From NCBI GenBank assembly GCA_965225855.1, contig CBDDCK010000005.1:1-64000 (forward strand): a stretch of DNA of 64,000 nucleotides, read 5' to 3'. Position 1 is the first letter of the stretch. Each line of letters opens with the position of its first letter. This document shows positions 17,743 to 54,514 of the stretch, piece after piece. Below the pieces are notes generated by a model. The model was given only the letters and a program-made list of their open reading frames with translations, was not told where the DNA came from and did no database searches. Origin of the DNA: Spirochaetia bacterium (GTDB taxonomy: Bacteria > Spirochaetota > Spirochaetia > SP-2023). The position numbers and the translations under genes were made by a program.

Positions 17743-18412
17743 ATGAGCTCAATTTTTTTGAATCAAATTTCATTAAAATTCTAGTCTGGTGGTGTCTACT
17801 ATTGTTGTTTATTTTTTCCATTGCTTGCCCATGGCAAAAATGGAAATGAAAACGCAAATTACCAAACCGAAAACCCAACGAACCAACAAGAACAACTCTC
17901 TAATTCGCAAGCAAATCTTGTATTATAAGAAGTGGAACAATATCAGTATAGCCTATTTTATTCCGCAGTGCTTGATCGTAACAGGGCAAAATACAGAGGG
18001 TTTGCGTTAGCGCTTGAGTTTTATCGAGCAGAAAAAGCTTTATACTCTACAAAAACTCACTCACAGTACAGCACCCAAAAAACGCTCAAAATCTTGCGCA
18101 GTTATTTATAAGATGGAATAACAGATGACTATATTGATTCAGAGATAAAGGCTTTGAGTCGGCGGCAATTAAAGCCCACTGATTACTTCTTATTGCGATA
18201 AATCAATCTCTACTATTACCTGCTTTATGAACCATAAAAGTCTAACCGTTTTATTATTGTTCAGAACAATAAATGGCAATTAGATAATGCTGCTAGTAGA
18301 ACCCAGAGCCTATGGTGTATTCAAATCCACAAGATATGGGCAGCCATTCAGTCTGTGCGCCTACGTTTATAGTGAAGAATTTAGGAATCTATTACTAGGT
18401 GTAGAGCCATAA
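17743..18412 (+). pseudogene. Decayed gene interrupted by element E3 (appears to resume at 21952-~22070)
   Basis: Long protein-like frame broken by several isolated in-frame TAA/TAG stops; ends exactly at the E3 left end. Confidence 0.5.
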
Positions 18413-18625
18413 TGAAAGAGGACATGATAACTGAACGGGATAAGACGCGATAACTCGGGATTTTTTGGAACAAATGGGAAGGTAAAGGCGAAAGGGCTTC
18501 AGATAAAAAAGCCTAAAACATAGCCAAACGATTATTAATGATCGGCTGGTAAAAGAAATTTTAGCTAAGGCTAAAGCAGAGCTTGAGAACAATACCGATA
18601 AATAAATACCCCAGCCCCTCTAACC

Positions 18626-18838
18626 ATAGAATTACCTCGCACCTATTCAATAGAATTGACCCAAATCTATTGATAGAATTACCTCGCACCTATTCAATAG
18701 AATTGACCCAAATCTATTGATAGAATTACCTCGCACCTATTCAATAGAATTGACCCAAATCTATCAATAGAATTACCTCCCACCTATTGATAGAATTGAC
18801 CCAAATCTATCAATAGATTTACCTCCCACCTATTGATA
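18626..18838. repeat. Alternating 24/23-bp (47-bp) tandem array, ~4.5 units
   Basis: atagaattacctcgcacctattca / atagaattgacccaaatctattg; shorter copy at 45745-45840. Confidence 0.9.
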
Positions 18839-18840
18839 CC

Positions 18841-19248
18841 CTAGTCTTTAATGAAATTTTCTACATCGGCAATACGCAGTTTGCCCGATAGCAATTGGGG
18901 CAAAAGTGTATCCCTAATTTTAGTTAAAGTTTGGTTTTCTATTTTGTTATCAATGTGTGAAATATTTTTATTCAATGTATAGCAGATTATTTGATTGGGA
19001 GACACATTTGAGACGGCATATAGTGCGTATGATTGAAAAGCTTTTTTATGTTTAATGGCACATAATCCACGACCTATACAACAATCATCGGAAATCGTTG
19101 GCCAAATTCTGAACGCCCCTGAAAGAATAATATCCCGTTTTCATTTTCATTAAATGTTTCACCTTTTGGAGATTGCCCCATAGTGTAATCAAGGTGTAAT
19201 CAAGGTGTAATCAAGTATTTTATTCAATTCTACACTTTCCCACCCCCC
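18841..19248 (-). pseudogene. hsdS: Type I restriction-modification specificity subunit remnant
   Basis: Manual translation gives GWESVELNKILDYT / MGQSPKGETFNENENGILFFQGRSEFGQRFP / DDCCIGRGLCAIK...ENQTLTKIRDTLLPQLLSGKLRI*, which are HsdS TRD and conserved-region motifs, with deletions and frameshifts. Confidence 0.8.
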
Positions 19249-19457
19249 CAAAGGCCAAACAAAGGCCAACACCCCACCCCACCCAAGACTTTTGATTGGC
19301 ATTGATTTTTAACCACCTTACAACACTAAAAAAACACAAAAAAACTTACAAAAAGCTTATATAGACCTTGACGCAACACCCCCCCTAGCAAAATAGGGAT
19401 TTACACACTAGCCCGTATGGGTTGGTTAATCTTTATCCATTGTTGGAGGTATTGCTT

Positions 19458-21791
19458 ATGTATAAGCACAAACTATTTTTATTGCCATTAGCATTGCTAC
19501 TGGCCTTTATGGCCTTGGCCTGCGCCCCACCCGATGACGATGATCGATCTTCTGGGCCTGCAATCACCAGTGCAAGCTACGACTTTGCTACGGCGCTGTT
19601 AACCGTACAAGGTACTGACTTAAGTCCTACAGAAGCCCAAATCCAAACTATCACGGTAGCTGGCCTAGCCTTAAGTTCCTATACTGCAGATGACCCAGCC
19701 ACTGGGTCAGATAGTAGCGATCTTGCAAAAGGTAAGTACCGTATTAAAAGCGATGGCACAGAGCTTTGGCTGAAACTTACCGAGCAACATAAAGCTGTTC
19801 TTGAGGCCAAGGTGGGTAGCGATGGTCTAAAAAAAGGGTTGCTTACTAGCTCTGGTGCTTGGGCGGGTTTAGATACAGCCAAAGACTTAACCGTTAGGAA
19901 TATACCCGCAGCCGAACAAGTCGATGATCAATCGCGTAAGCAAACTGAAGACGAAGAAGCTGAAGAAGAGTCGCCTAAGCAACCTAAAGACAAACAAGTC
20001 GAACAAGCTGAAGAAGAGTCGCCTAAGCAACCTAAAGACAAACAAGTCGAACAAGCTGAAGAAGAGTCGCGTAAGTTACCCGAAGCCGAACAAACCGAAG
20101 AAGTCGATGATGAATCGCCTAAGCAACCTAAAGACAAACAAGTCGAACAAGCTGAAGAAGAGTCGCGTAAGTTACCCGAAGCCGAACAAACCGAAGAAGT
20201 CGATGATGAATCGCCTAAGCAACCTAAAGCCGAACAAGTCGAACAAGCTGAAGAAGAGTCGCCTAAGCAACCTAAAGCCGAACAAGTCGAACAAGTCGAA
20301 GAGGATTCGCCTGAAGCCGCAATTACCGGTGCAAGCTACAATGTTGGCACGGCGCTGCTAACCGTACAAGGTTCTAACTTAAGTCCTACAGAAGCGCAAA
20401 TCCAAACCATCACGGTAGGAAGCCGAACAAATGGCGTAGCTTTAGATTCCTATACTGCAGATACCACAGCCACTGGGGCAGATAGTCACAGTCTTGCAAA
20501 AGGTAAGTACCGTATTAAAAGCGATGGCACAGCCATTTGGCTTTACCTTACCGATCGACATAAAACTACTCTGAATGGCAAGCCCGGTATGGATAGCAAT
20601 GGTCTAAAAGATGGGTTGCTTACTAGCACTGGTACTTGGGCGGGTTTAGATACAGCCAAAGCCTTGGCCGTTAGTGGAAACCCACCCGCAATTACCAGTG
20701 CAACCTACCATGTTGGCACGGCGCTGTTAACCGTACAAGGTTCTAACTTAAGTCCTACAACTGCGACCCAAGCCCAAATCCAAACCATCACGGTAGATGG
20801 GATAGCTTTAGATTCCTATACTGCAGATGGCACAGCCACTGGGCCAGATAGTCGTAGTCTTGCAAAAGGTAAGTACCGTATTAAGAGCGATGGCACAAAG
20901 ATTTGGCTTTACCTTACCGATCAACATAAAACTACTCTGAATGGCAAGGACGGTATGGATACCAATGGTCTAAAAGATGGGTTGCTTACTAGCACTGGTG
21001 CTTGGGCGGGTTTAGATACAGCCAAAGCCTTAACTGTTAGTGGAAACCCACCCACAATTACCCGTGCAACCTACAATGCTAATACAGGCGTGTTAGTGAT
21101 TACAGGTGTCAATTTACCGACAGCAGTTGCAAGATGGGACTTCACCAAATTGAGGTTTGTCGCAGGTAATGGTGATAAGAGTGCCCCATTATTCCGGCAC
21201 TCCGTATATGGAACTATAAGCTTTGCCAAAGGTTCTGCAGCAAGTTCAACAAGCTTAACGATTCTTTTAAAGGGTAGTGAAAAATGGAAAGCCGAGAAGA
21301 TACTGTTTAAGAATGGTGATAGTGATGATAATGGTGCATACAACCTGGAAGCAGCAGCAGGCTTTGCAGGTGGTAGCGCTGAAGACACAAGCAATAACCC
21401 TATTACCGTTAGTGGCTACATAAGCAAGATCAACTCCGTACTCTACTCTACTATTGAAGGCATATTATTGATTGAGGGTGCCAATTTACCGAGAACAGTT
21501 GCAGAGTGGGACTTTAGCAAATTGACGATTGTATCCGGTGATGGTAATAAGAGATACACATTACCCCAGCACGCAACTGCAGGTGAAAACACAGCCACAG
21601 GTTCTATGGGGGTAAATAGACGCAGATTATTTATTACTTTAAGCGGTAGTGTAAGAGCGGAAGCCGAGAAGATACTGGTTAAGGTTGGTAAAAGTGATAA
21701 TAATGGTGCATACAACCTTGAAGTAGCAGCAGGATTTGTAATGGGTGGTTTAGCATACCCAACCAATGCTATTAAAGTTGTAAATTATTAA
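19458..21791 (+). CDS. Modular surface lipoprotein, paralogue 3 (A-linker-A-A-B-B)
   Basis: RBS, lipobox and repeats as in the other copies. Confidence 0.9.
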   Translation: MYKHKLFLLPLALLLAFMALACAPPDDDDRSSGPAITSASYDFATALLTVQGTDLSPTEAQIQTITVAGLALSSYTADDPATGSDSSDLAKGKYRIKSDGTELWLKLTEQHKAVLEAKVGSDGLKKGLLTSSGAWAGLDTAKDLTVRNIPAAEQVDDQSRKQTEDEEAEEESPKQPKDKQVEQAEEESPKQPKDKQVEQAEEESRKLPEAEQTEEVDDESPKQPKDKQVEQAEEESRKLPEAEQTEEVDDESPKQPKAEQVEQAEEESPKQPKAEQVEQVEEDSPEAAITGASYNVGTALLTVQGSNLSPTEAQIQTITVGSRTNGVALDSYTADTTATGADSHSLAKGKYRIKSDGTAIWLYLTDRHKTTLNGKPGMDSNGLKDGLLTSTGTWAGLDTAKALAVSGNPPAITSATYHVGTALLTVQGSNLSPTTATQAQIQTITVDGIALDSYTADGTATGPDSRSLAKGKYRIKSDGTKIWLYLTDQHKTTLNGKDGMDTNGLKDGLLTSTGAWAGLDTAKALTVSGNPPTITRATYNANTGVLVITGVNLPTAVARWDFTKLRFVAGNGDKSAPLFRHSVYGTISFAKGSAASSTSLTILLKGSEKWKAEKILFKNGDSDDNGAYNLEAAAGFAGGSAEDTSNNPITVSGYISKINSVLYSTIEGILLIEGANLPRTVAEWDFSKLTIVSGDGNKRYTLPQHATAGENTATGSMGVNRRRLFITLSGSVRAEAEKILVKVGKSDNNGAYNLEVAAGFVMGGLAYPTNAIKVVNY

Positions 21792-22151
21792 GTAGGGTTT
21801 GGTTGTTGCTGTAAGCAAGGCTCTTGGTTGGCCTATTGCAGCCTTGGTAAGTTTTTTATCAAGGCTGCAATAAGCCAATTCTAGCCATTCTGGAAAGTAG
21901 AAGAGTCGAGTTATCACGTCCGATGGCACAAAGTTATCACGTCCTGCATCAACATTATATCTGTACTTATCATCATACAAGGATAGTATGTTACAATCTT
22001 TATGATGGTTGTACCTCCATAAAGATTGTATTTTATTTTTGTAGATATATTCTTATCTAAATATTAAGTTAGTTCTATTTACAAAAATGAAACGCCCTTA
22101 CTATCGTCATGTAGGGTCGTATTATTCAACTTTATTCATTTTTGATGAATT

Positions 22152-34839: not shown

Positions 34840-36390
34840 TTACTGGAAACGAGGCTTATATTCCTCTTGCCATTTATCTACCCCATGATCAAAATGCTTA
34901 CGCTTTATGACTCGGTTTACTTCCCAGCTGCTTAGGTCTTGATTAAAGGCTCGGGCAAAATAAAACATATCCTCCATATTGGTAACTTTAGAAACATTCC
35001 ATTCGTTAATTGGTTGGTTAAAAGCGGTTGCCCCATGAAACATGAATCCCATATCGGTAACTTTGGTCGTATTCCAATTACCAATTGGCTGGTTAAAGGC
35101 GTATGCCTTAAAAAACATGAATCCCATATCGGTAACTTTGGCTGTATTCCACTTGTCGCCATTGGTGTTGATGGGCTGGTTAAAGGCTTCTGCCTCACCA
35201 AACATCAAGCGCATATCGGTAACTTTAGCGGTATTCCAATTGCCAATTGGCTGGTTAAAGGCTTGTGCCTCATAAAACATGGCTTTCATATTTGTAACTT
35301 GGGCGGTATTCCAATTGCCAATTGGTTGGTTAAAGGTTTGTGCCTTACGAAACATGTATTTCATATCGGTAACATTGGCCGTGTTCCAATTGCCAATTGG
35401 TTGGTTAAAAGCTTCTGCCCCATCAAACATGTGTTCCATATTGGTAACTTTGGCCGTGTTCCAATTGCCAATTGGTTGGTTAAAAGCCTTTGTCCTTCCG
35501 AATAAACCCGACATATTGATAACATTGGAAGTATCCCAGTTGCCAATTGGCTGGTTAAAGGCTTCTGTCATACCAAACATAACGTACATATTGGCAACAT
35601 TGGCGGTATCCCAATCGCCAATCGGTTGGTTAAACGCTTGTGTTCGAACGAATAAACCGCTCATATCGGTAACGTTGGCGGTATCCCAATCGCCAATCGG
35701 TTGGTTAAAAACTTTTGCTTCCGCAAACATAAATCGCATGTTGGCAACGTTGGAAACATCCCAACAGTTTATTGCACCATTAAAGTCAGTCTTACTAAAA
35801 ACCTTGCTTAAGTCGGTTATCTGGGAAGTATCTATAGCTTGTAAATCATCACCAGTTAATTTACTGTCGCCCGTTACCAGTGCTTTAAGCTGTTCGGTGG
35901 TGGCGGGCTTGTGTTCTGTACTTGGTGGCGGGCAGCCACTTTTTCGTACGGTGAATTTATAGAGTTTTGTGTGGCCGCCTCCATCAACCTTTACCTCATA
36001 CGCTCCGACTCGTTCGTCTGCGGGTATGGTGAGTTTTGCTGTTTGGCTTGTGGAGCTTAGCTTTGTCCAAGTGCGGCCCAACGAGCTATCGTCTTTTTTG
36101 CCACGCTTGCGCCATTGCCAGCTCAACTCCCCGCTACCTTCGGTTACAACGCTAAAGGTAATCGCTTTGCTTTGGAATACCCAGGCCGTTGTGCTCGCAT
36201 CTATGCCTCCATGGTCGGTATCGGTTTGGCTGAGAATCCCCCCCAAAGAGATAATCCCCTTGCCGTTATTATTATTGCTAAGGTCTCCTTTGTCTTCATC
36301 TAAGTCACCACACGAAAACATTAGAAAAAGGCCAAGCAAAGCGAAAAAGTCAACAAGGCGATGATTACTATTCAGATGATTACTATTCAT
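34840..36390 (-). CDS. DUF285 (BspA-like) repeat surface lipoprotein
   Basis: AGGAG RBS before ATG 36390; LMFSC lipobox; 25-aa repeats FNQPIGNWNTAKVTNM..MF. Confidence 0.9.
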   Translation of the reverse strand: MNSNHLNSNHRLVDFFALLGLFLMFSCGDLDEDKGDLSNNNNGKGIISLGGILSQTDTDHGGIDASTTAWVFQSKAITFSVVTEGSGELSWQWRKRGKKDDSSLGRTWTKLSSTSQTAKLTIPADERVGAYEVKVDGGGHTKLYKFTVRKSGCPPPSTEHKPATTEQLKALVTGDSKLTGDDLQAIDTSQITDLSKVFSKTDFNGAINCWDVSNVANMRFMFAEAKVFNQPIGDWDTANVTDMSGLFVRTQAFNQPIGDWDTANVANMYVMFGMTEAFNQPIGNWDTSNVINMSGLFGRTKAFNQPIGNWNTAKVTNMEHMFDGAEAFNQPIGNWNTANVTDMKYMFRKAQTFNQPIGNWNTAQVTNMKAMFYEAQAFNQPIGNWNTAKVTDMRLMFGEAEAFNQPINTNGDKWNTAKVTDMGFMFFKAYAFNQPIGNWNTTKVTDMGFMFHGATAFNQPINEWNVSKVTNMEDMFYFARAFNQDLSSWEVNRVIKRKHFDHGVDKWQEEYKPRFQ

Positions 36391-36471
36391 ATAAACACTC
36401 CTTATGAATAAAGAATTTTTACGATACATTACTCAATCGCTTTTTAAATGCATAATATTTTTTGCGCAGCA

Positions 36472-38214
36472 TCAAGAGTTAAAGGGAGGTTTGGCTTGTT
36501 GCCATTTTCTGGCATCCCGACTAAAACCATCACTTTTAACATTTTTATTTACCTTCCATCTACTTAAATCTTGATTAAAAGAATGTGCACCCCAAAACAT
36601 AAATCTCATATCGGTAACTTGAGCAACGTCCCAATCGCCAATATCTTGGTCAAAAGTGTTTGCACCCGCAAACATATGGTACATGTTGGTAACTTTGGCG
36701 GTGTTCCACTGGCCAATCGGCTGGTTGAAAGCGTCTGCTTCATAAAACATATGGTACATGTTGGTAACTTTGGCGGTGTTCCACTTGTCGCCATTGGTGT
36801 TGATGGGCTGGTTAAACGCCCTTGCGTCAAGAAACATCTTTTTCATACTGGTCACGTTGGCGGTGTTCCACTCGCCAATGGGCTGGTTAAAAGCTCTTGC
36901 GCCAAGAAACATAGCGGCCATATTGGTAACTTTGGCGGTATTCCACTTGTCGCCATTGGTGTTGATGGGCTGGTTAAAAGCTATTGCGTTCGTAAACATA
37001 TTTACCATGTTGGTCACGTTGGCGGTATTCCAGTTGCCAATGGCTTGGTTAAACGCGGTTGCATAGTAGAACATAGCGGCCATGTTGGTCACGTTGGCGG
37101 TATCCCAATTGCCAATCGGTTGGTCAAATACTTTTGCACTATCAAACATAAATCGCATGTCCTGAACGTTGGCGGTATTCCAGTTGCCAATGGCTTGATT
37201 AAAAGCGGTTGCTTCACTAAACATAGCGTACATATTGGTCACTTTGGCGGTATTCCAGTGGCCAATCGGTTGGTTAAATACTTTTGCTTCATTAAACATA
37301 GCGTACATATTGGTCACGTTGGCGGTATTCCAATTGCCAATTGGTTGGTTAAAGGCTTCTGCCCCATCAAACATGTGTTCCATATTGGTCACGTTGGCGG
37401 TATTCCAATTGCCAATGGGCTGGTTAAAAGCCTTTGTCCTTCCGAATAAACCTGACATATTGATAACATTGGAAGTATCCCAGTTACCAATTGGCTGGTT
37501 AAAGGCTTCTGTCATACCAAACATTAACTTCATATTGGCAACGTTGGAAACATCCCAGCAGTTTATTGCACCATTAAAGTCAGTCCTAATAAAAACCTTG
37601 CTTAAGTCGGTTATCTGGGAAGTATCTATAGCTTGTAAATCATCGCCAGTTAATTTACTGTCGCCTGTTACCAGTGCTTTAAGCTGTTCGGTGGTGGCGG
37701 GCTTGTGTTCTGTACTTGGTGGCGGGCAGCCACTTTTTCGTACGGTGAATTTATAGAGTTTTGTATGGCCGCCTCCATCAACCTTTATTTCATAGGCGCC
37801 GACTCTTTCGTCTTCGGGTATGGTGAGTTTTGCTGTTTGGCTTGTGGAGCTTAGCTTTGTCCAAGTGCGGCCCAACGAGCTATCGTCTTTTTTGCCACGC
37901 TTGCGCCATTGCCAGCTCAACTCCCCGCTACCTTCGGTTACAACGCTAAAGGTAATCGCTTTGCTTTGGAATACCCAGGCCGTTGTGCTCGCATCTATGC
38001 CTCCATGGTCGGTATCGGTTTGGCTGAGAATCCCCCCCAAAGAGATAATCCCCTTGCCGTTGTCTTCATCTAAGTCACCACACGAAAACATTAGAAAAAG
38101 GCCAAACAAGGCGAGAGTTACTCTTTTAAATCTTGTCGATGCTGTGTGAGAGCCGCAAAAATAGTGGGCTAAATAATGGATTTGGTAGAACCGATTGGTT
38201 GGGCGGTTATTCAT
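36472..38214 (-). CDS. DUF285 (BspA-like) repeat surface lipoprotein, tandem paralogue
   Basis: N-domain near-identical to the neighbour; 25-aa repeats. Confidence 0.9.
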   Translation of the reverse strand: MNNRPTNRFYQIHYLAHYFCGSHTASTRFKRVTLALFGLFLMFSCGDLDEDNGKGIISLGGILSQTDTDHGGIDASTTAWVFQSKAITFSVVTEGSGELSWQWRKRGKKDDSSLGRTWTKLSSTSQTAKLTIPEDERVGAYEIKVDGGGHTKLYKFTVRKSGCPPPSTEHKPATTEQLKALVTGDSKLTGDDLQAIDTSQITDLSKVFIRTDFNGAINCWDVSNVANMKLMFGMTEAFNQPIGNWDTSNVINMSGLFGRTKAFNQPIGNWNTANVTNMEHMFDGAEAFNQPIGNWNTANVTNMYAMFNEAKVFNQPIGHWNTAKVTNMYAMFSEATAFNQAIGNWNTANVQDMRFMFDSAKVFDQPIGNWDTANVTNMAAMFYYATAFNQAIGNWNTANVTNMVNMFTNAIAFNQPINTNGDKWNTAKVTNMAAMFLGARAFNQPIGEWNTANVTSMKKMFLDARAFNQPINTNGDKWNTAKVTNMYHMFYEADAFNQPIGQWNTAKVTNMYHMFAGANTFDQDIGDWDVAQVTDMRFMFWGAHSFNQDLSRWKVNKNVKSDGFSRDARKWQQAKPPFNS

Positions 38215-45224: not shown

Positions 45225-45842
45225 CGATCGCTTGTATAAAGTCCAGTTATTTGGTTGAATCGTTTGGAGGCTATTAATAGGCTATAACATTCCGAACTAA
45301 TAATTATCTATTAAATCCGATAGAAAGTATTTAATCGGCTACTTAGAAAGTATCTTGTTTAGTAGTATCAATTCAAATGCCTATTTTAAGAATTAGGAAA
45401 ACCAGAGTATATTCTAAAGACTAGCAAAAGCCTAGTCTAGGTTGCCTTTTGTGAAGCACTTAAATTTAGCTACACAAAACAAGCCACCTCTAAAGGAATC
45501 CACTGCCTTATTTGCTTTTTTTGTGGCTATAGGGTGTAATATAGCACCGGCCGCTAGGTTAGTAGTGGCTCTTTAATGAAAGAGGACATGATAACTGAAC
45601 GGGATAAGACTTGATAACTCGGGATTTTTTGGCACAAATGGGAAGGTAAAATTGGCTTACTTCCCAAAATAAAAAGGTAAAAAGATTTTTCATTGCACTA
45701 GAAAAAGCCAGAATCCATTTTTAACACCAAAGCCCCCTCTAACCATAGAATAACCTCCCACCTATGTAATAGAATCGACCCAAATCTATCTATAGAATTA
45801 CCTCCCACCTATTGATAGAATCGACCCAAATCTATTGATACC

Positions 45843-46050
45843 CTAGTCTTTAATGAAATTTTCTACATCGGCACATAATCCAGGACCTATACAACAATCA
45901 TCGGCAATCGTTGGCCAAATTCTGAACGCCCCTGAAAGAATAATATCCCGTTTTCATTTTCATTAAATGTTTCACCTTTTGGAGATTGCCCCATAGTGTA
46001 ATTAAGGTGTAATCAAGTATTTTATTCAATTCTACACTTTCCCACCCCCT
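45843..46050 (-). pseudogene. hsdS: Shorter hsdS remnant (further deleted copy of 18841-19248)
   Basis: Near-identical DNA to the E3 relic but lacking ~190 bp bounded by a ggca microhomology. Confidence 0.75.
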
Positions 46051-46416
46051 CAAGCCTTCACAATAAAGACCAAACCATGCCATAACTATGTACTTTTGAA
46101 AAGTAACAATTATGGACTAGGTCGGTCCATAGTTATCGACTTGTTGCGTCTATAACTATGGATTGGTTGCTTTGATGGTTCATAGATTACAATAATATGG
46201 AATGCAAATGGATTGGCATGGATTTTTAACCACCTTACAACACTAAAAAACAACACTAACACACAAAAAAAGTGCCCAAAACATAAAAAAAGCACAAAAA
46301 AAGTTTGCAAAAATCTTATATAGGCCTTGACGCAACACCCCCCCTAGCAAAATGGGGCACTGTACACTAGCCCGTATGGGTTGGCGAATCTTTATCCATT
46401 TTTGGAGGTATTGCTT

Positions 46417-48153
46417 ATGTATAAGCTCAAACTACTTTTATTGCCTGTAGCATTGCTACTGGCCTTTATGGCCTTGGCCTGCGCCCCACCCGATGACGAT
46501 GATCGATCTTCTGGGCCGACTAAGCCGACTATCAATAACGCCATCTACGATTTTACTACGGCTCTGTTAACCGTACAAGGTACTGACTTAAGTCCTACAG
46601 AAGCCCAAATCCAAACTATCAGGGTAGCTGGCCTAGCCTTAAATTCTTATACTGCCACAGCCACTGGGGTAAATAGTAACGGTCTTAAACAAGGTCAGTA
46701 CCGTATTGCAAACGATGGCACTGCGATTTGGCTTAGACTTACCGATCGACATAAAGCTGCTCTGAATGGCAAGACAGGTATGGATAGCAATGGTCTAAAA
46801 AAAGGGTTGCTTACTAGCTCTGGTGCTTGGGCGGGTTTAAATACAGCCAAAGACTTGGAAGTTAGGAATATACCCGAAAATAAGCAGTCTAAAGTATCCG
46901 ATGACAATCAGCCATCTAAGCAAACTGAAGACGAACAAGCTGAAGAAGACGAACAAGCCGAACAAACCGAAGAAGTCGAAGATAAGCAGTCTAAGACCGA
47001 AGCCGAAGATCAGTCGCCTAAGCAACCTAAAGACGAACAAGCTGAACAAGTCGAAGAGGAGTCGCCTAAAGCCGCAATTACCGGTGCAACCTACAATGTT
47101 GGCACGGCTCTGCTAAATTTACAAGGTTCTAACTTAAGTGCTACAACTGCGACCCAAGCGCAAATCCAAACTATCACGGTAGATGGCGTAGCCTTAAGTT
47201 CCTATATTGCAGATGCCACAGCCACTGGGCCAGATAGTCGCAGTCTTGCAAAAGGTAAGTACCGTATTAAAAGCGATGGCACAGCACTTTGGCTGAAACT
47301 TACCGATGCCGATAAAGCTACTCTGAATGGCAAGACAGGTATGGATAGCAATGGTCTAAAAAAAGGATTGCTTAGCGTTGGCACTGGTACTTGGGCGGGT
47401 TTAGATACAGCCAAAGACTTGGACGTTAGTGGAAACCCCGCACCCACAATTACCAGTGCAACCTACAATGCTATTACAGGCGTGTTAGTGATTACAGGTG
47501 TCAATTTACCGTCAACAGTGGATCGCTGGGACTTTAGGAAATTGAGGTTTGTCGCAGGTAATGGTCGTAATAAATACACATTACCCGGTCACTACCCAAC
47601 CGGTAATAACATAGCCACAGGTTCTGCAGCAAGTGCAACAAGCTTAACGATTACTTTAGGCCGTTATCAACGCAATAGAGCCAATAGGATATTGGTTAAG
47701 AATGGTGATAGTGATGTTGATGGTGCATACAACCTGGAAGCAGCAGCAGGATTTGCAGGTGGTAGGGCTGAAGACACAAGCAATAACCCGATTACCGTTA
47801 GTGGGTATGTAATTTCTATCACTGGAGCATACTACAATCCTAATAATGGCAATTTATTGATTCAGGGTACTAATTTACTGACAACAATTGCAGAGTGGGA
47901 CTTTAGCAAATTGACGCTTGTATCCGGTGATGGTAGTAAGAGATACAAATTACCCCGGCACGCAACCACAGGTGAAAACAGAGCCGAAGGTTCTAATGCA
48001 AGTGCAGTAAGCGTATTGATTACTTTAAGCGGTAGTGTAAAAGCCAAAGTCGATGCTATACTGGTTAAGAATGGCAACCTGGAAGCAGCAGCAGGATTTG
48101 TACCTGGTAGCGCAGAAGACCTAACCAATAATAAGATTATAGTTTTTAATTGA
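46417..48153 (+). CDS. Modular surface lipoprotein, paralogue 6 (A-linker-A-B-B)
   Basis: RBS, lipobox and repeats. Confidence 0.9.
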   Translation: MYKLKLLLLPVALLLAFMALACAPPDDDDRSSGPTKPTINNAIYDFTTALLTVQGTDLSPTEAQIQTIRVAGLALNSYTATATGVNSNGLKQGQYRIANDGTAIWLRLTDRHKAALNGKTGMDSNGLKKGLLTSSGAWAGLNTAKDLEVRNIPENKQSKVSDDNQPSKQTEDEQAEEDEQAEQTEEVEDKQSKTEAEDQSPKQPKDEQAEQVEEESPKAAITGATYNVGTALLNLQGSNLSATTATQAQIQTITVDGVALSSYIADATATGPDSRSLAKGKYRIKSDGTALWLKLTDADKATLNGKTGMDSNGLKKGLLSVGTGTWAGLDTAKDLDVSGNPAPTITSATYNAITGVLVITGVNLPSTVDRWDFRKLRFVAGNGRNKYTLPGHYPTGNNIATGSAASATSLTITLGRYQRNRANRILVKNGDSDVDGAYNLEAAAGFAGGRAEDTSNNPITVSGYVISITGAYYNPNNGNLLIQGTNLLTTIAEWDFSKLTLVSGDGSKRYKLPRHATTGENRAEGSNASAVSVLITLSGSVKAKVDAILVKNGNLEAAAGFVPGSAEDLTNNKIIVFN

Positions 48154-48298
48154 TGTTGGTAAGTAAGGTTTGGTTGTTGCAACGCTTGCATTGGCCAATT
48201 GCAGCCTTGGTAAGTTTTTTTATCAAGGCTGCTTTTGCCAAGTTATAGCCATTCTGGAAAGTAGAAGAGTCGAGTTATCACGTCCTGCATCACTTTAA

Positions 48299-52900: not shown

Positions 52901-53416
52901 TTACATCAATTTAAGCAAGCCCAAGATACCGATAACTAGGCCAATGCCTGTTCCTATAAACCATTGCAACATCAAAAACCTTTTATCCATATTCTGTTGC
53001 ATAGCTTCAAAGCGCTTGTCGACTTGTTCAAAGCGTTTATCAATGCTTTGCTGCATAGCTTCAAAGCGCTTGTCGACTTGTTCAAAGCGTTTATCGATAC
53101 TTTGTTGCATAGCCTCAAAGCGCTTGTCGACTTGTTCAAAGCGCTTGTCCATTTGCTGCATAAAGGTTTTAAGCACTTCTTGGTTTTGTTGCAGCAGCTC
53201 CCTTTGGTGCTTGAGCTCTTCTTCCACACGCACCATGCGTTCTAGTAGTTCGGGCCCATAATTGGGCCTTTCGGCTTTAGCGGGTGCTGGCAATGGTTGC
53301 TGCGCCAATTGGTCTTGTAGTTGGCGCTGCACTTCCTTAGCTAAATTTTCTTTTAGTAGGTTTTCGATTAGGTCTTGTATCGAAGCTTGGTCATGGTGTT
53401 CGGCTAAATTATTCAT
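52901..53416 (-). CDS. Bdr/DUF1640-like coiled-coil repeat membrane protein, short allele
   Basis: DKRFEQV and DKRFEAMQQSI repeats; C-terminal TM helix. Confidence 0.8.
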   Translation of the reverse strand: MNNLAEHHDQASIQDLIENLLKENLAKEVQRQLQDQLAQQPLPAPAKAERPNYGPELLERMVRVEEELKHQRELLQQNQEVLKTFMQQMDKRFEQVDKRFEAMQQSIDKRFEQVDKRFEAMQQSIDKRFEQVDKRFEAMQQNMDKRFLMLQWFIGTGIGLVIGILGLLKLM

Positions 53417-53422
53417 TAGCCC

Positions 53423-53451
53423 AATATAGCCTAAAGTGTAAACAAAGTCAA
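53423..53451 (-). promoter_or_regulatory. sigma70 promoter, probably giving leaderless mRNA (second copy at 54521-54549)
   Basis: TTGACT-17-TATATT-gggcta-ATG; no RBS. Confidence 0.65.
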
Positions 53452-53686
53452 GGCTTGGTCTAAACTTTTGCTAAAAAAGTCAACGCAATGGTTTGGTTGT
53501 ACCAAGCCCAAAACAACAAGGGCAAATAAGGTAGTGGATTGTAAAAACTAGATTCCCATAACGGGAATTATTCCACTACCAAGCGGGTAGTACCCACAAA
53601 CCAAGCTAGTCGTAACCCACTAACCACTTGGTAGTGGGTTACGACTAGCTTGGTTTGTCTAACAAAAAGGCAAGCAACCGTAGGGC

Positions 53687-54514
53687 TTACATCAATTTAA
53701 GCAAGCCCAAGATACCGATAACTAGGCCAATGCCTGTTCCTATAAACCATTGCAACATCAAAAACCTTTTATCCATATTCTGTTGCATAGCTTCAAAGCG
53801 CTTGTCCATGTTTTGCTGCATAACTTCAAAGCGTTTATCCACTTGTTCAAAGCGTTTGTCCATGTTTTGCTGCATAGCTTCAAAGCGTTTATCGATGCTT
53901 TGTTGCATAGCTTCAAAGCGTTTATCGATGCTTTGTTGCATAGCTTCAAAGCGTTTATCGATACTTTGCTGAATAGCTTCAAAGCGCTTGTCCATTTGCT
54001 CAAAGCGCTTGTCGATACTTTGCTGCATAGCTTCAAAGCGCTTGTCCATTTGCTCAAAGCGCTTATCAATACTTTGTTGCATAGCCTCAAAGCGCTTGTC
54101 GACTTGTTCAAAGCGCTTGTCGACTTGTTCAAAGCGCTTGTCGACTTGTTCAAAGCGCTTGTCGACTTGTTCAAAGCGCTTGTCGACTTGTTCAAAGCGC
54201 TTGTCGACTTGTTCAAAGCGCTTGTCGACTTGCTCAAAGCGCTTGTCCATTTGCTGGATAAAGGTTTTAAGCACTTCTTGGTTTTGTTGCAGCAGCTCCC
54301 TTTGGTGCTTAAGCTCTTCTTCGACCCGCACCATGCGTTCGAGTAGTTCGGGCCCATAATTGGGCCTTTCGACTTTGGCGAGTGCTGGCAATGGTTGCTG
54401 CGCCAATTGGTCTTGTAGTTGGCGCTGCACTTCCTTAGCTAAATTTTCTTTTAGTAAGTTTTCGATTAGGTCTTGTATCAAGGCTTGGTCATGGTGTTCA
54501 GCTAAATTATTCAT
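53687..54514 (-). CDS. Bdr/DUF1640-like coiled-coil repeat membrane protein, long allele
   Basis: Near-identical ends to 52901-53416, with expanded 21-bp and 33-bp repeats. Confidence 0.8.
   Translation of the reverse strand: MNNLAEHHDQALIQDLIENLLKENLAKEVQRQLQDQLAQQPLPALAKVERPNYGPELLERMVRVEEELKHQRELLQQNQEVLKTFIQQMDKRFEQVDKRFEQVDKRFEQVDKRFEQVDKRFEQVDKRFEQVDKRFEQVDKRFEAMQQSIDKRFEQMDKRFEAMQQSIDKRFEQMDKRFEAIQQSIDKRFEAMQQSIDKRFEAMQQSIDKRFEAMQQNMDKRFEQVDKRFEVMQQNMDKRFEAMQQNMDKRFLMLQWFIGTGIGLVIGILGLLKLM

Follow-up and report, generated by a model that had tools for sequence, protein, structure and literature searches.

A likely natural mini-Mu cassette carrying a lipoprotein gene between prophage-type ends in a Spirochaetia bacterium

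Introduction

How could a single lipoprotein gene come to lie between two phage-like DNA ends, with no transposase beside it? This question is raised by E3, an element in the first 64,000 nucleotides of contig CBDDCK010000005.1 of a Spirochaetia bacterium (assembly GCA_965225855.1). This whole stretch is called the window here (G000:C5:1-64000), and it belongs to a genome, G000, of 2.71 Mb in 5 contigs that is 94% complete. Three FlaA matches mark the genome as spirochaetal, FlaA being a typical protein of this group. In the initial annotation E3 was regarded as an old insertion within a decayed gene, still carrying an aged target site duplication (TSD). Another answer was reached in this work, with a probability of about 85%. 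E3 is a transposase-less cassette bounded by the ends of a B3/BcepMu-type prophage of the same genome, its sole gene encodes a likely adhesin-type lipoprotein, the prophage transposase likely moved such cassettes in trans, and the flanks of E3 likely mismatch since one side was later exchanged or deleted.

Extent and ends of E3

E3 extends from TG at 18413 to CA at 21951 and is 3,539 bp long. Both ends are built in the same way: after the first 7 bp comes a 13-bp site, which a 10-bp spacer separates from another site, the two lying 23 bp apart. The left phage end (18413..18486, forward strand) starts with TG at 18413 and has its sites at 18420-18432 and 18443-18457, and the right phage end (21880..21951, reverse strand) has its sites at 21932-21944 and 21907-21921 and the terminal CA at 21950-21951. 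The 10-nt spacers of the two ends differ in sequence. Paired two-site ends of equal spacing and differing spacers, likened to protein-binding sites, had been noticed before, and they were borne out at 18413 and 21951, where they would behave like transposase-binding sites.

The first 74 bp of E3 are identical to another left end of genome G000. A strict search for the two-site end gave 49 matches in this genome, and a profile search gave 66 ends, of which 33 are left ends and 33 right ends. The motif was matched once, at three mismatches, in 400 other genomes of the phylum, and no exact match was found in viral contigs. The ends of E3 are far beyond chance. No transposase is encoded in E3, the lipoprotein gene being its sole long open reading frame (ORF), and E3 is a mobile unit without its own transposase.

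The likely donor prophage and its transposase

One rve-family match was identified in genome G000, an intact 586-aa ORF (C5:1273165-1274925) with the catalytic triad D144-D238-E274. PF09299 (Mu transposase C-terminus) gave no match in the transposase search, and the controls were likewise without match, which makes this profile uninformative here. Among phage transposases the closest come from Komp_PAO1_1, Bise, Ps59, BcepMu and B3, at 28-38%. A gene for a MuB-like ATPase adjoins this DDE transposase, and both belong to a prophage of 36,089 bp (G000:C5:1257678-1293766), which also encodes terminase, portal, repressor, Mor, Mu gpT capsid, protease, tail sheath, tape measure and baseplate proteins. 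This prophage is bounded by the same two-site ends as E3, with 90% identity over 63 nt at the left end and 92% identity over 72 nt at the right end. Its right end is canonical, while the left end has TG but its outer site is degenerate and lacks one base. The size and the Mu-like head and tail genes fit the 36-39 kb genomes of B3/BcepMu-type phages, with several genes split, and the prophage looks structurally defective. The donor works like a B3/BcepMu-type phage and may not be a complete, active one.

An independent check on the phage origin of the ends is given by a prophage in the congener G002, where a related transposase (55% identity) is flanked by one pair of ends that follow the same two-site design and are separated by 27.8 kb. 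Two end-motif matches were found in each of the congeners G001 and G002, and none in G003.

The ends might instead belong to a non-phage transposon of IS21-, Tn552- or Tn7-like type, absent or unassembled now, and the prophage would then have them by coincidence. These families commonly have TG...CA ends with repeated sites, and an assembly that is 94% complete in 5 contigs would leave room for such an element. This reading is very improbable and largely refuted, since the same ends bound both the prophage here and the related one in G002, the genome has just one rve match, and the phage left arm extends 196 nt further in some cassettes and the right arm about 270 nt further in two. E3 itself keeps only about 70 bp of each phage end and has no phage gene in common with the prophage.

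Prophage pieces at 93-100% identity were also seen at contig ends (G000:C4:334779-343005, C3:1-774 and C5:2030137-2030826), which are likely further prophage copies collapsed in the assembly.

Target duplications and the age of E3

With 3 degenerate ends set aside, 63 of the 66 were kept, and among these there are 17 pairs in which a left and a right end face each other at up to 7 kb. A perfect 6-bp duplication was found in 5 of these 17 cassettes versus 3 of 823 non-cognate end pairs (P = 4e-9), and none of the 17 pairs had a perfect duplication of 4, 5 or 7 bp. Thus the cassettes moved as units, and we infer their mobility from these scars in the sequence. The scar length agrees with that of B3-family transposases, which make 6-bp duplications (PMC8705779), and the TSD length implied in the initial annotation was right for this family.

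For E3 itself, the left hexamer CCATAA (18407..18412, forward strand) and the right hexamer ACATTA (21952..21957, forward strand) differ by two mismatches and make a doubtful target duplication. They had been taken as an aged TSD, each one substitution away from CCATTA, with one change on each side since an old insertion. In favour of this, the hexamers are identical at 4 of 6 positions, with an atypical core in common, and two or fewer mismatches to E3's own hexamers are reached in just 1 of 30 and 2 of 26 non-cognate ends. Among all 823 non-cognate pairs, though, 113 (13.7%) differ at no more than two positions, and two such cases among the 12 imperfect pairs fit chance (P = 0.50). The number of pairs with 0, 1, 2, 3, 4, 5 and 6 mismatches is 5, 0, 2, 3, 2, 4 and 1, so the imperfect pairs (12 of 17) carry 2-6 mismatches each and a one-mismatch pair does not occur among the 17. 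This spread is perfect or random, not that of gradual ageing.

Exact 21-mers present elsewhere in the genome cover 98.6% of the interior of E3, and about 6 runs of private changes occur in its 1,205 non-coding nt, versus 0-8 in the copies with perfect scars. At this private divergence of 0.5-1%, two changes within the 12 nt of the hexamers have P = 0.002-0.006. E3 is no more diverged inside than the perfect-scar copies, and nothing marks it as an old insertion. Mosaic exchange could hide the age of the element, and gene conversion could keep the interior of an old one young. An aged scar is improbable for E3 on the whole, and flank exchange or one-sided deletion is the likely source of the mismatch.

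The cassette at 45577-48292 of the window, which carries one of six further family genes found there, is framed by a perfect 6-bp duplication and has a single site in its right end. Eight right ends have only one of the two sites (approximately G000:C1:131306 and C5:4244, 48292, 174753, 1300913, 1385280, 1452721 and 2013491), two of them still with perfect scars, and recombination between the two direct repeats would produce ends of this kind. At G000:C5:1590138-1616622, a right end faces a left end across 26.5 kb with a perfect 6-bp match, and the two may bound a composite transposon.

Position of E3 relative to the neighbouring gene

The decayed host gene (17743..18404, forward strand) belongs to no known family, and it is a neighbour and not a part of E3. 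It was proposed earlier that an intact orthologue be sought downstream of tatD in relatives, and one was found: an intact ORF of about 490-500 codons lies directly after tatD in all three congeners (G001, G002 and G003). Pfam gave no match for the G001 orthologue. The decayed gene has about 660 nt compared with about 1,480 nt in the orthologues, some 800 nt being lost, and it contains 5 in-frame stops from 17743, then a frameshift near 18367. The C-terminal part of the orthologues aligns to 18004-18366 at 43%, the congeners sharing 56-63% among themselves. All three orthologues end with YSRxFxxLLPG and a stop, a motif which maps, after the frameshift, to 18368-18404, with the last residues at 18368-18400 and the ancestral stop at 18401-18404. 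E3 begins 8 bp further on.

An insertion of E3 within this gene was therefore rejected, as three orthologues end 8 bp before the element, and the probability of the intragenic part of the old-insertion reading is practically nil. What stands of the initial placement is that the decayed gene lies to the left of E3. Removal of the element does join the flanks in the frame of the last 11 codons of the decayed gene, as had been stated, but beyond the gene end; because E3 starts after the ancestral stop, the join would only add residues found in no orthologue. E3 being outside, the decay of the gene says nothing on the age of E3.

The right flank has no similarity to the orthologues, with local scores of 12-16 compared with 26-40 for the left flank, so the two flanks are not of one gene, the very result named beforehand as contrary to the intragenic insertion. 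In G001 and G002 the aminopeptidase gene to the right of E3 lies away from tatD, and in G003 it was not found. This separation also speaks against an aged scar between former neighbours, and it weakly supports unrelated flanks, gene order being poorly kept in the genus. Conserved neighbours did not lead to the true partner site of E3: each of the three congeners has a different gene following the orthologue of the decayed gene, and the gene that adjoins the aminopeptidase gene in G001 maps to C5:857671, where neither a family gene nor an end is listed alongside. In G002, tandem lipoprotein-like paralogues of another family were observed near tatD (L017, G002:C1:2478000-2493000).

The cargo lipoprotein

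The cargo gene (19458..21791, forward strand) is an intact ORF for a lipoprotein of 777 aa, with a signal peptide including Cys22 followed by domain A1, a linker and domains A2, A3, B1 and B2. On the forward strand the acidic linker of 48-bp repeats is encoded at 19948-20317, A2 at 20319-20684, A3 at 20685-21050, B1 at 21051-21419 and B2 at about 21429-21788. The domains are predicted to be beta-sandwich repeats. A two-domain model consisted mostly of beta strands (predicted local distance difference test, pLDDT, 69.7), and its best structural match was the S-layer protein SbsC (Z 7.0, root mean square deviation 2.9 over 94 residues), a likeness that may be just a common sandwich fold. Foldseek found no match at E <= 0.001, with immunoglobulin (Ig) folds appearing weakly, and a wide structural search revealed no clear family, while the Atlas gave unnamed clusters with low recognition. 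Pfam gave one marginal CrtC score, taken as spurious, and PHROGs gave nothing.

The profile of domain B recovered 525 proteins, many of them 2,000-7,000 aa long with 5-30 repeats. In 15 of these giant proteins that were scanned, DUF4347 was present in 10, and several had cadherin, Big_9, Calx-beta or RTX domains. The company of such domains suggests that domain B is an adhesin-type stalk repeat, and the cargo is likely a surface-anchored lipoprotein of adhesin type.

The lipoprotein gene family

The upstream sequence of the cargo gene was matched 116 times in genome G000, and 112 of these matches had a gene start. The family occupies 221,736 bp in total, 8.2% of the genome. A phage end is kept by 40 of the 112 genes, and 17 have both ends. 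The median best-hit identity within the family is 75%. Of the 90 close homologues in the protein database, 85 belong to G000 itself and 5 to other assemblies, the latter with 76-86% identity to the nearest copy in G000, and a search of the three congeners with this query did not recover the family in any of them. E3 is a mosaic, its best paralogue match changing along 150-nt windows at 85-100% identity.

The intact cargo had been held to imply selection on it. The ORF is indeed intact, but so are most of its relatives, as 106 of 112 genes encode at least 400 aa (all 40 with a phage end and 66 of 72 without), and intactness is confounded by exchange between copies. Ratios of nonsynonymous to synonymous changes (dN/dS) gave no sign of plain purifying selection on the cargo. 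Between E3 and 101 paralogues the median pairwise ratio was 0.81 over the first 160 codons and reached 2.15 over the final 125, and a codon model (30 of 102 genes) gave an omega of 0.84 for the N-terminal part and 1.79 for the last domain. In the distal domain, selection looks diversifying rather than conserving.

Six more family genes exist in the window, with gene starts at 1866, 13336, 27381, 40567, 46417 and 56718. Three divergent members without ends (G000:C5:353763, 571748 and 1104103, with 1,279, 1,017 and 217 aa) have more canonical promoter-like sequences and are possible ancestral copies. Two other repeat-protein gene pairs were noticed in the window (34840-38214 and 52901-54514), with 75-bp and 21-bp repeat units, and the 21-bp type apparently recurs downstream of several lipoprotein genes.

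Upstream region and predicted promoter

A non-coding tandem array lies at 18619..18834 (no strand assigned), with 4.6 copies of a 47-bp period composed of 23-bp subunits and a palindromic 10-bp core. The core was matched 113 times in the genome, 89 of the matches being upstream of family genes (28 genes), and none in the prophage. The cores are possibly operator sites.

A putative promoter at 19368..19394 (forward strand) consists of TTGACG and CAAAAT, separated by a 15-nt spacer that includes 7 consecutive C. A TTGACN and a -10-like hexamer enclosing the C-run could be parsed in 106 of the 112 genes, with a spacer of 13 nt in 1 gene, 14 in 17, 15 in 85 (E3 among them), 16 in 2 and 17 in 1, homopolymer miscalls being possible in these lengths. 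Copies with 16-17 nt include those at C5:803129 and C5:1508714. If these predicted elements are the promoter, the majority of copies would be weak, with one or two switched on, and E3 is predicted to be weak or off at its 15-nt spacing. The 15-nt-spacer site was missing from the output of a consensus promoter scan, which yielded fewer sites than shuffled sequences did. In addition, 17 nt of the lipoprotein leader (window 19407-19423, within a predicted hairpin) recur exactly before a prophage early gene (G000:C5:~1270716-1270732).

Proposed history and points of doubt

The history of the family might have proceeded in several steps. First, phage ends would have come to flank a lipoprotein gene. 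The phage transposase and its ATPase could then have spread copies of the cassette to further sites. Next, the roughly 110 dispersed copies would have recombined with one another, so that repeat domains were shuffled, ends worn away and flanks exchanged, or else transposase-driven adjacent deletions and inversions could have given the shuffling, the loss of ends and the flank swaps. Diversifying selection might then have acted on the distal domain, as for a host-facing surface. As the least certain step, the C-run in the promoter spacer could switch single copies on, with E3 predicted to be off.

The phage enzyme likely helped to scatter a large and fast-varying lipoprotein family. A wider proposal holds that the phage was domesticated as the dispersal engine of an antigenic-variation library, in which mini-Mu cassettes seeded more than 100 adhesin genes, Ig-like modules were shuffled, and a slipping promoter C-run keeps one or two genes on and nearly all silent. 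This proposal is speculative and would more probably prove wrong than right.

How much of the family was moved by the phage is a separate matter. The family could have spread mainly by host recombination and segmental duplication, with phage ends acquired by a subset and few copies moved. The 72 of 112 genes without any end would fit such a spread, and so would the mosaic nature of E3 and its sisters and the five left ends that share an identical outer flank (G000:C1:227251 and C5:1325, 172403, 427678 and 1477305). That flank is in its turn cassette-type upstream sequence; it is a nested junction copied without cutting at TG, and some copies spread in this way. Five perfect duplications at unrelated sites argue against host recombination as the main route, and the copies without ends are dispersed and single, with ragged borders within the shared interior, as erosion would give. 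In 69 of the 82 genes without a left end, distal interior sequence is shared with left-ended cassettes, the borders being ragged. Spread chiefly by host recombination is the less likely course, and it alters the share of the family moved by the phage, not the nature of E3.

Besides the end-less genes, the shared left flank, the hexamer match and the possible rejuvenation of the interior, further points weigh against the cassette origin proposed here. E3 itself is without a perfect scar, and the partner of either of its flanks is absent at the other ends among the 63 of the genome. Cross-matching flank pairs number 3 versus 1.15 expected, which is not above chance (P = 0.135), and no telling gene continuity was found in the joined flanks of cross-matched ends. 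The flanks of the prophage differ, with no matching 6-bp duplication, its outer left site is degenerate, and its structural genes are split. Inner phage left-arm sequence occurs in just 3 of the 82 left-less genes. The omega estimates are biased by recombination, and the fold model of the cargo is middling, with a weak best match.

Comparison with known systems

The importance of this locus rests on the cassette family and not on an aged scar in a dead gene. Phage-ended cassettes tied to a gene family of 8% of the genome offer a concrete route by which a phage could build a host surface repertoire. Spirochaetes are short of genetic tools (PMC8705779), and the family supplies testable parts for them, namely a transposase with minimal ends of about 70 bp and a putative promoter-length switch.

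No description of natural phage-ended passenger cassettes was found by a full-text literature search, most subscription journals being outside its scope, and PMC5977238 proved to have no bearing on mini elements. Mini-Mu elements are known chiefly as laboratory tools. In engineered mini-Mu and mini-D3112, phage ends likewise surround foreign DNA which is moved by phage transposition proteins (PMC8705779), whereas the cassettes here are natural and multi-copy, with a host surface-protein cargo and a mobility inferred from scars.

B3/BcepMu-type phages, including Leptospira prophages, have Tn552-related transposases (PMC8705779). The system here is like them in TG...CA ends, the 6-bp duplication, a DDE transposase with an ATPase partner, and a 36-kb donor with Mu-like head and tail genes; it is unlike them in that E3 has about 70 bp per end and no phage gene, and the donor prophage is without its own scar and looks structurally defective.

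For the promoter, the vlhA genes of Mycoplasma gallisepticum are comparable, with many lipoprotein paralogues and a promoter repeat of variable length, of which one length is thought to be active (PMC6258824). The family here also has many intact paralogues with variable distal parts. In vlhA the GAA repeats lie upstream of the promoter (PMC6258824), while here the repeat is a short C-run between the predicted -35 and -10 elements, the genes are dispersed in phage-ended cassettes, and switching would be only a possible consequence.

The closest parallel is found in the mobile insertion cassettes (MICs) of Xanthomonas that carry transcription activator-like effector (TALE) genes, where a passenger gene lies between TnXax1 (Tn3-family) ends and the cognate transposase is elsewhere (PMC4337579). 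E3 likewise has a passenger between ends, no transposase of its own, and the cognate transposase elsewhere in the genome; as for the target duplication of a MIC, 5 of 17 sister cassettes have a perfect one and E3 has 2 mismatches in 6, at chance level. In both systems the passengers form a large repeat-protein family that is partly ended (45% of TALE genes there and 36% of family genes here), solo ends occur, and target duplications are seen in some copies only (PMC4337579). The differences are that phage ends and a phage enzyme are used here instead of Tn3 or insertion sequence (IS) parts, that the scar is 6 bp and not 5 (PMC4337579), and that the cargo is a predicted surface lipoprotein family making up 8% of the genome. 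MICs themselves are known, and what is new here is mobile insertion cassettes built on phage ends.

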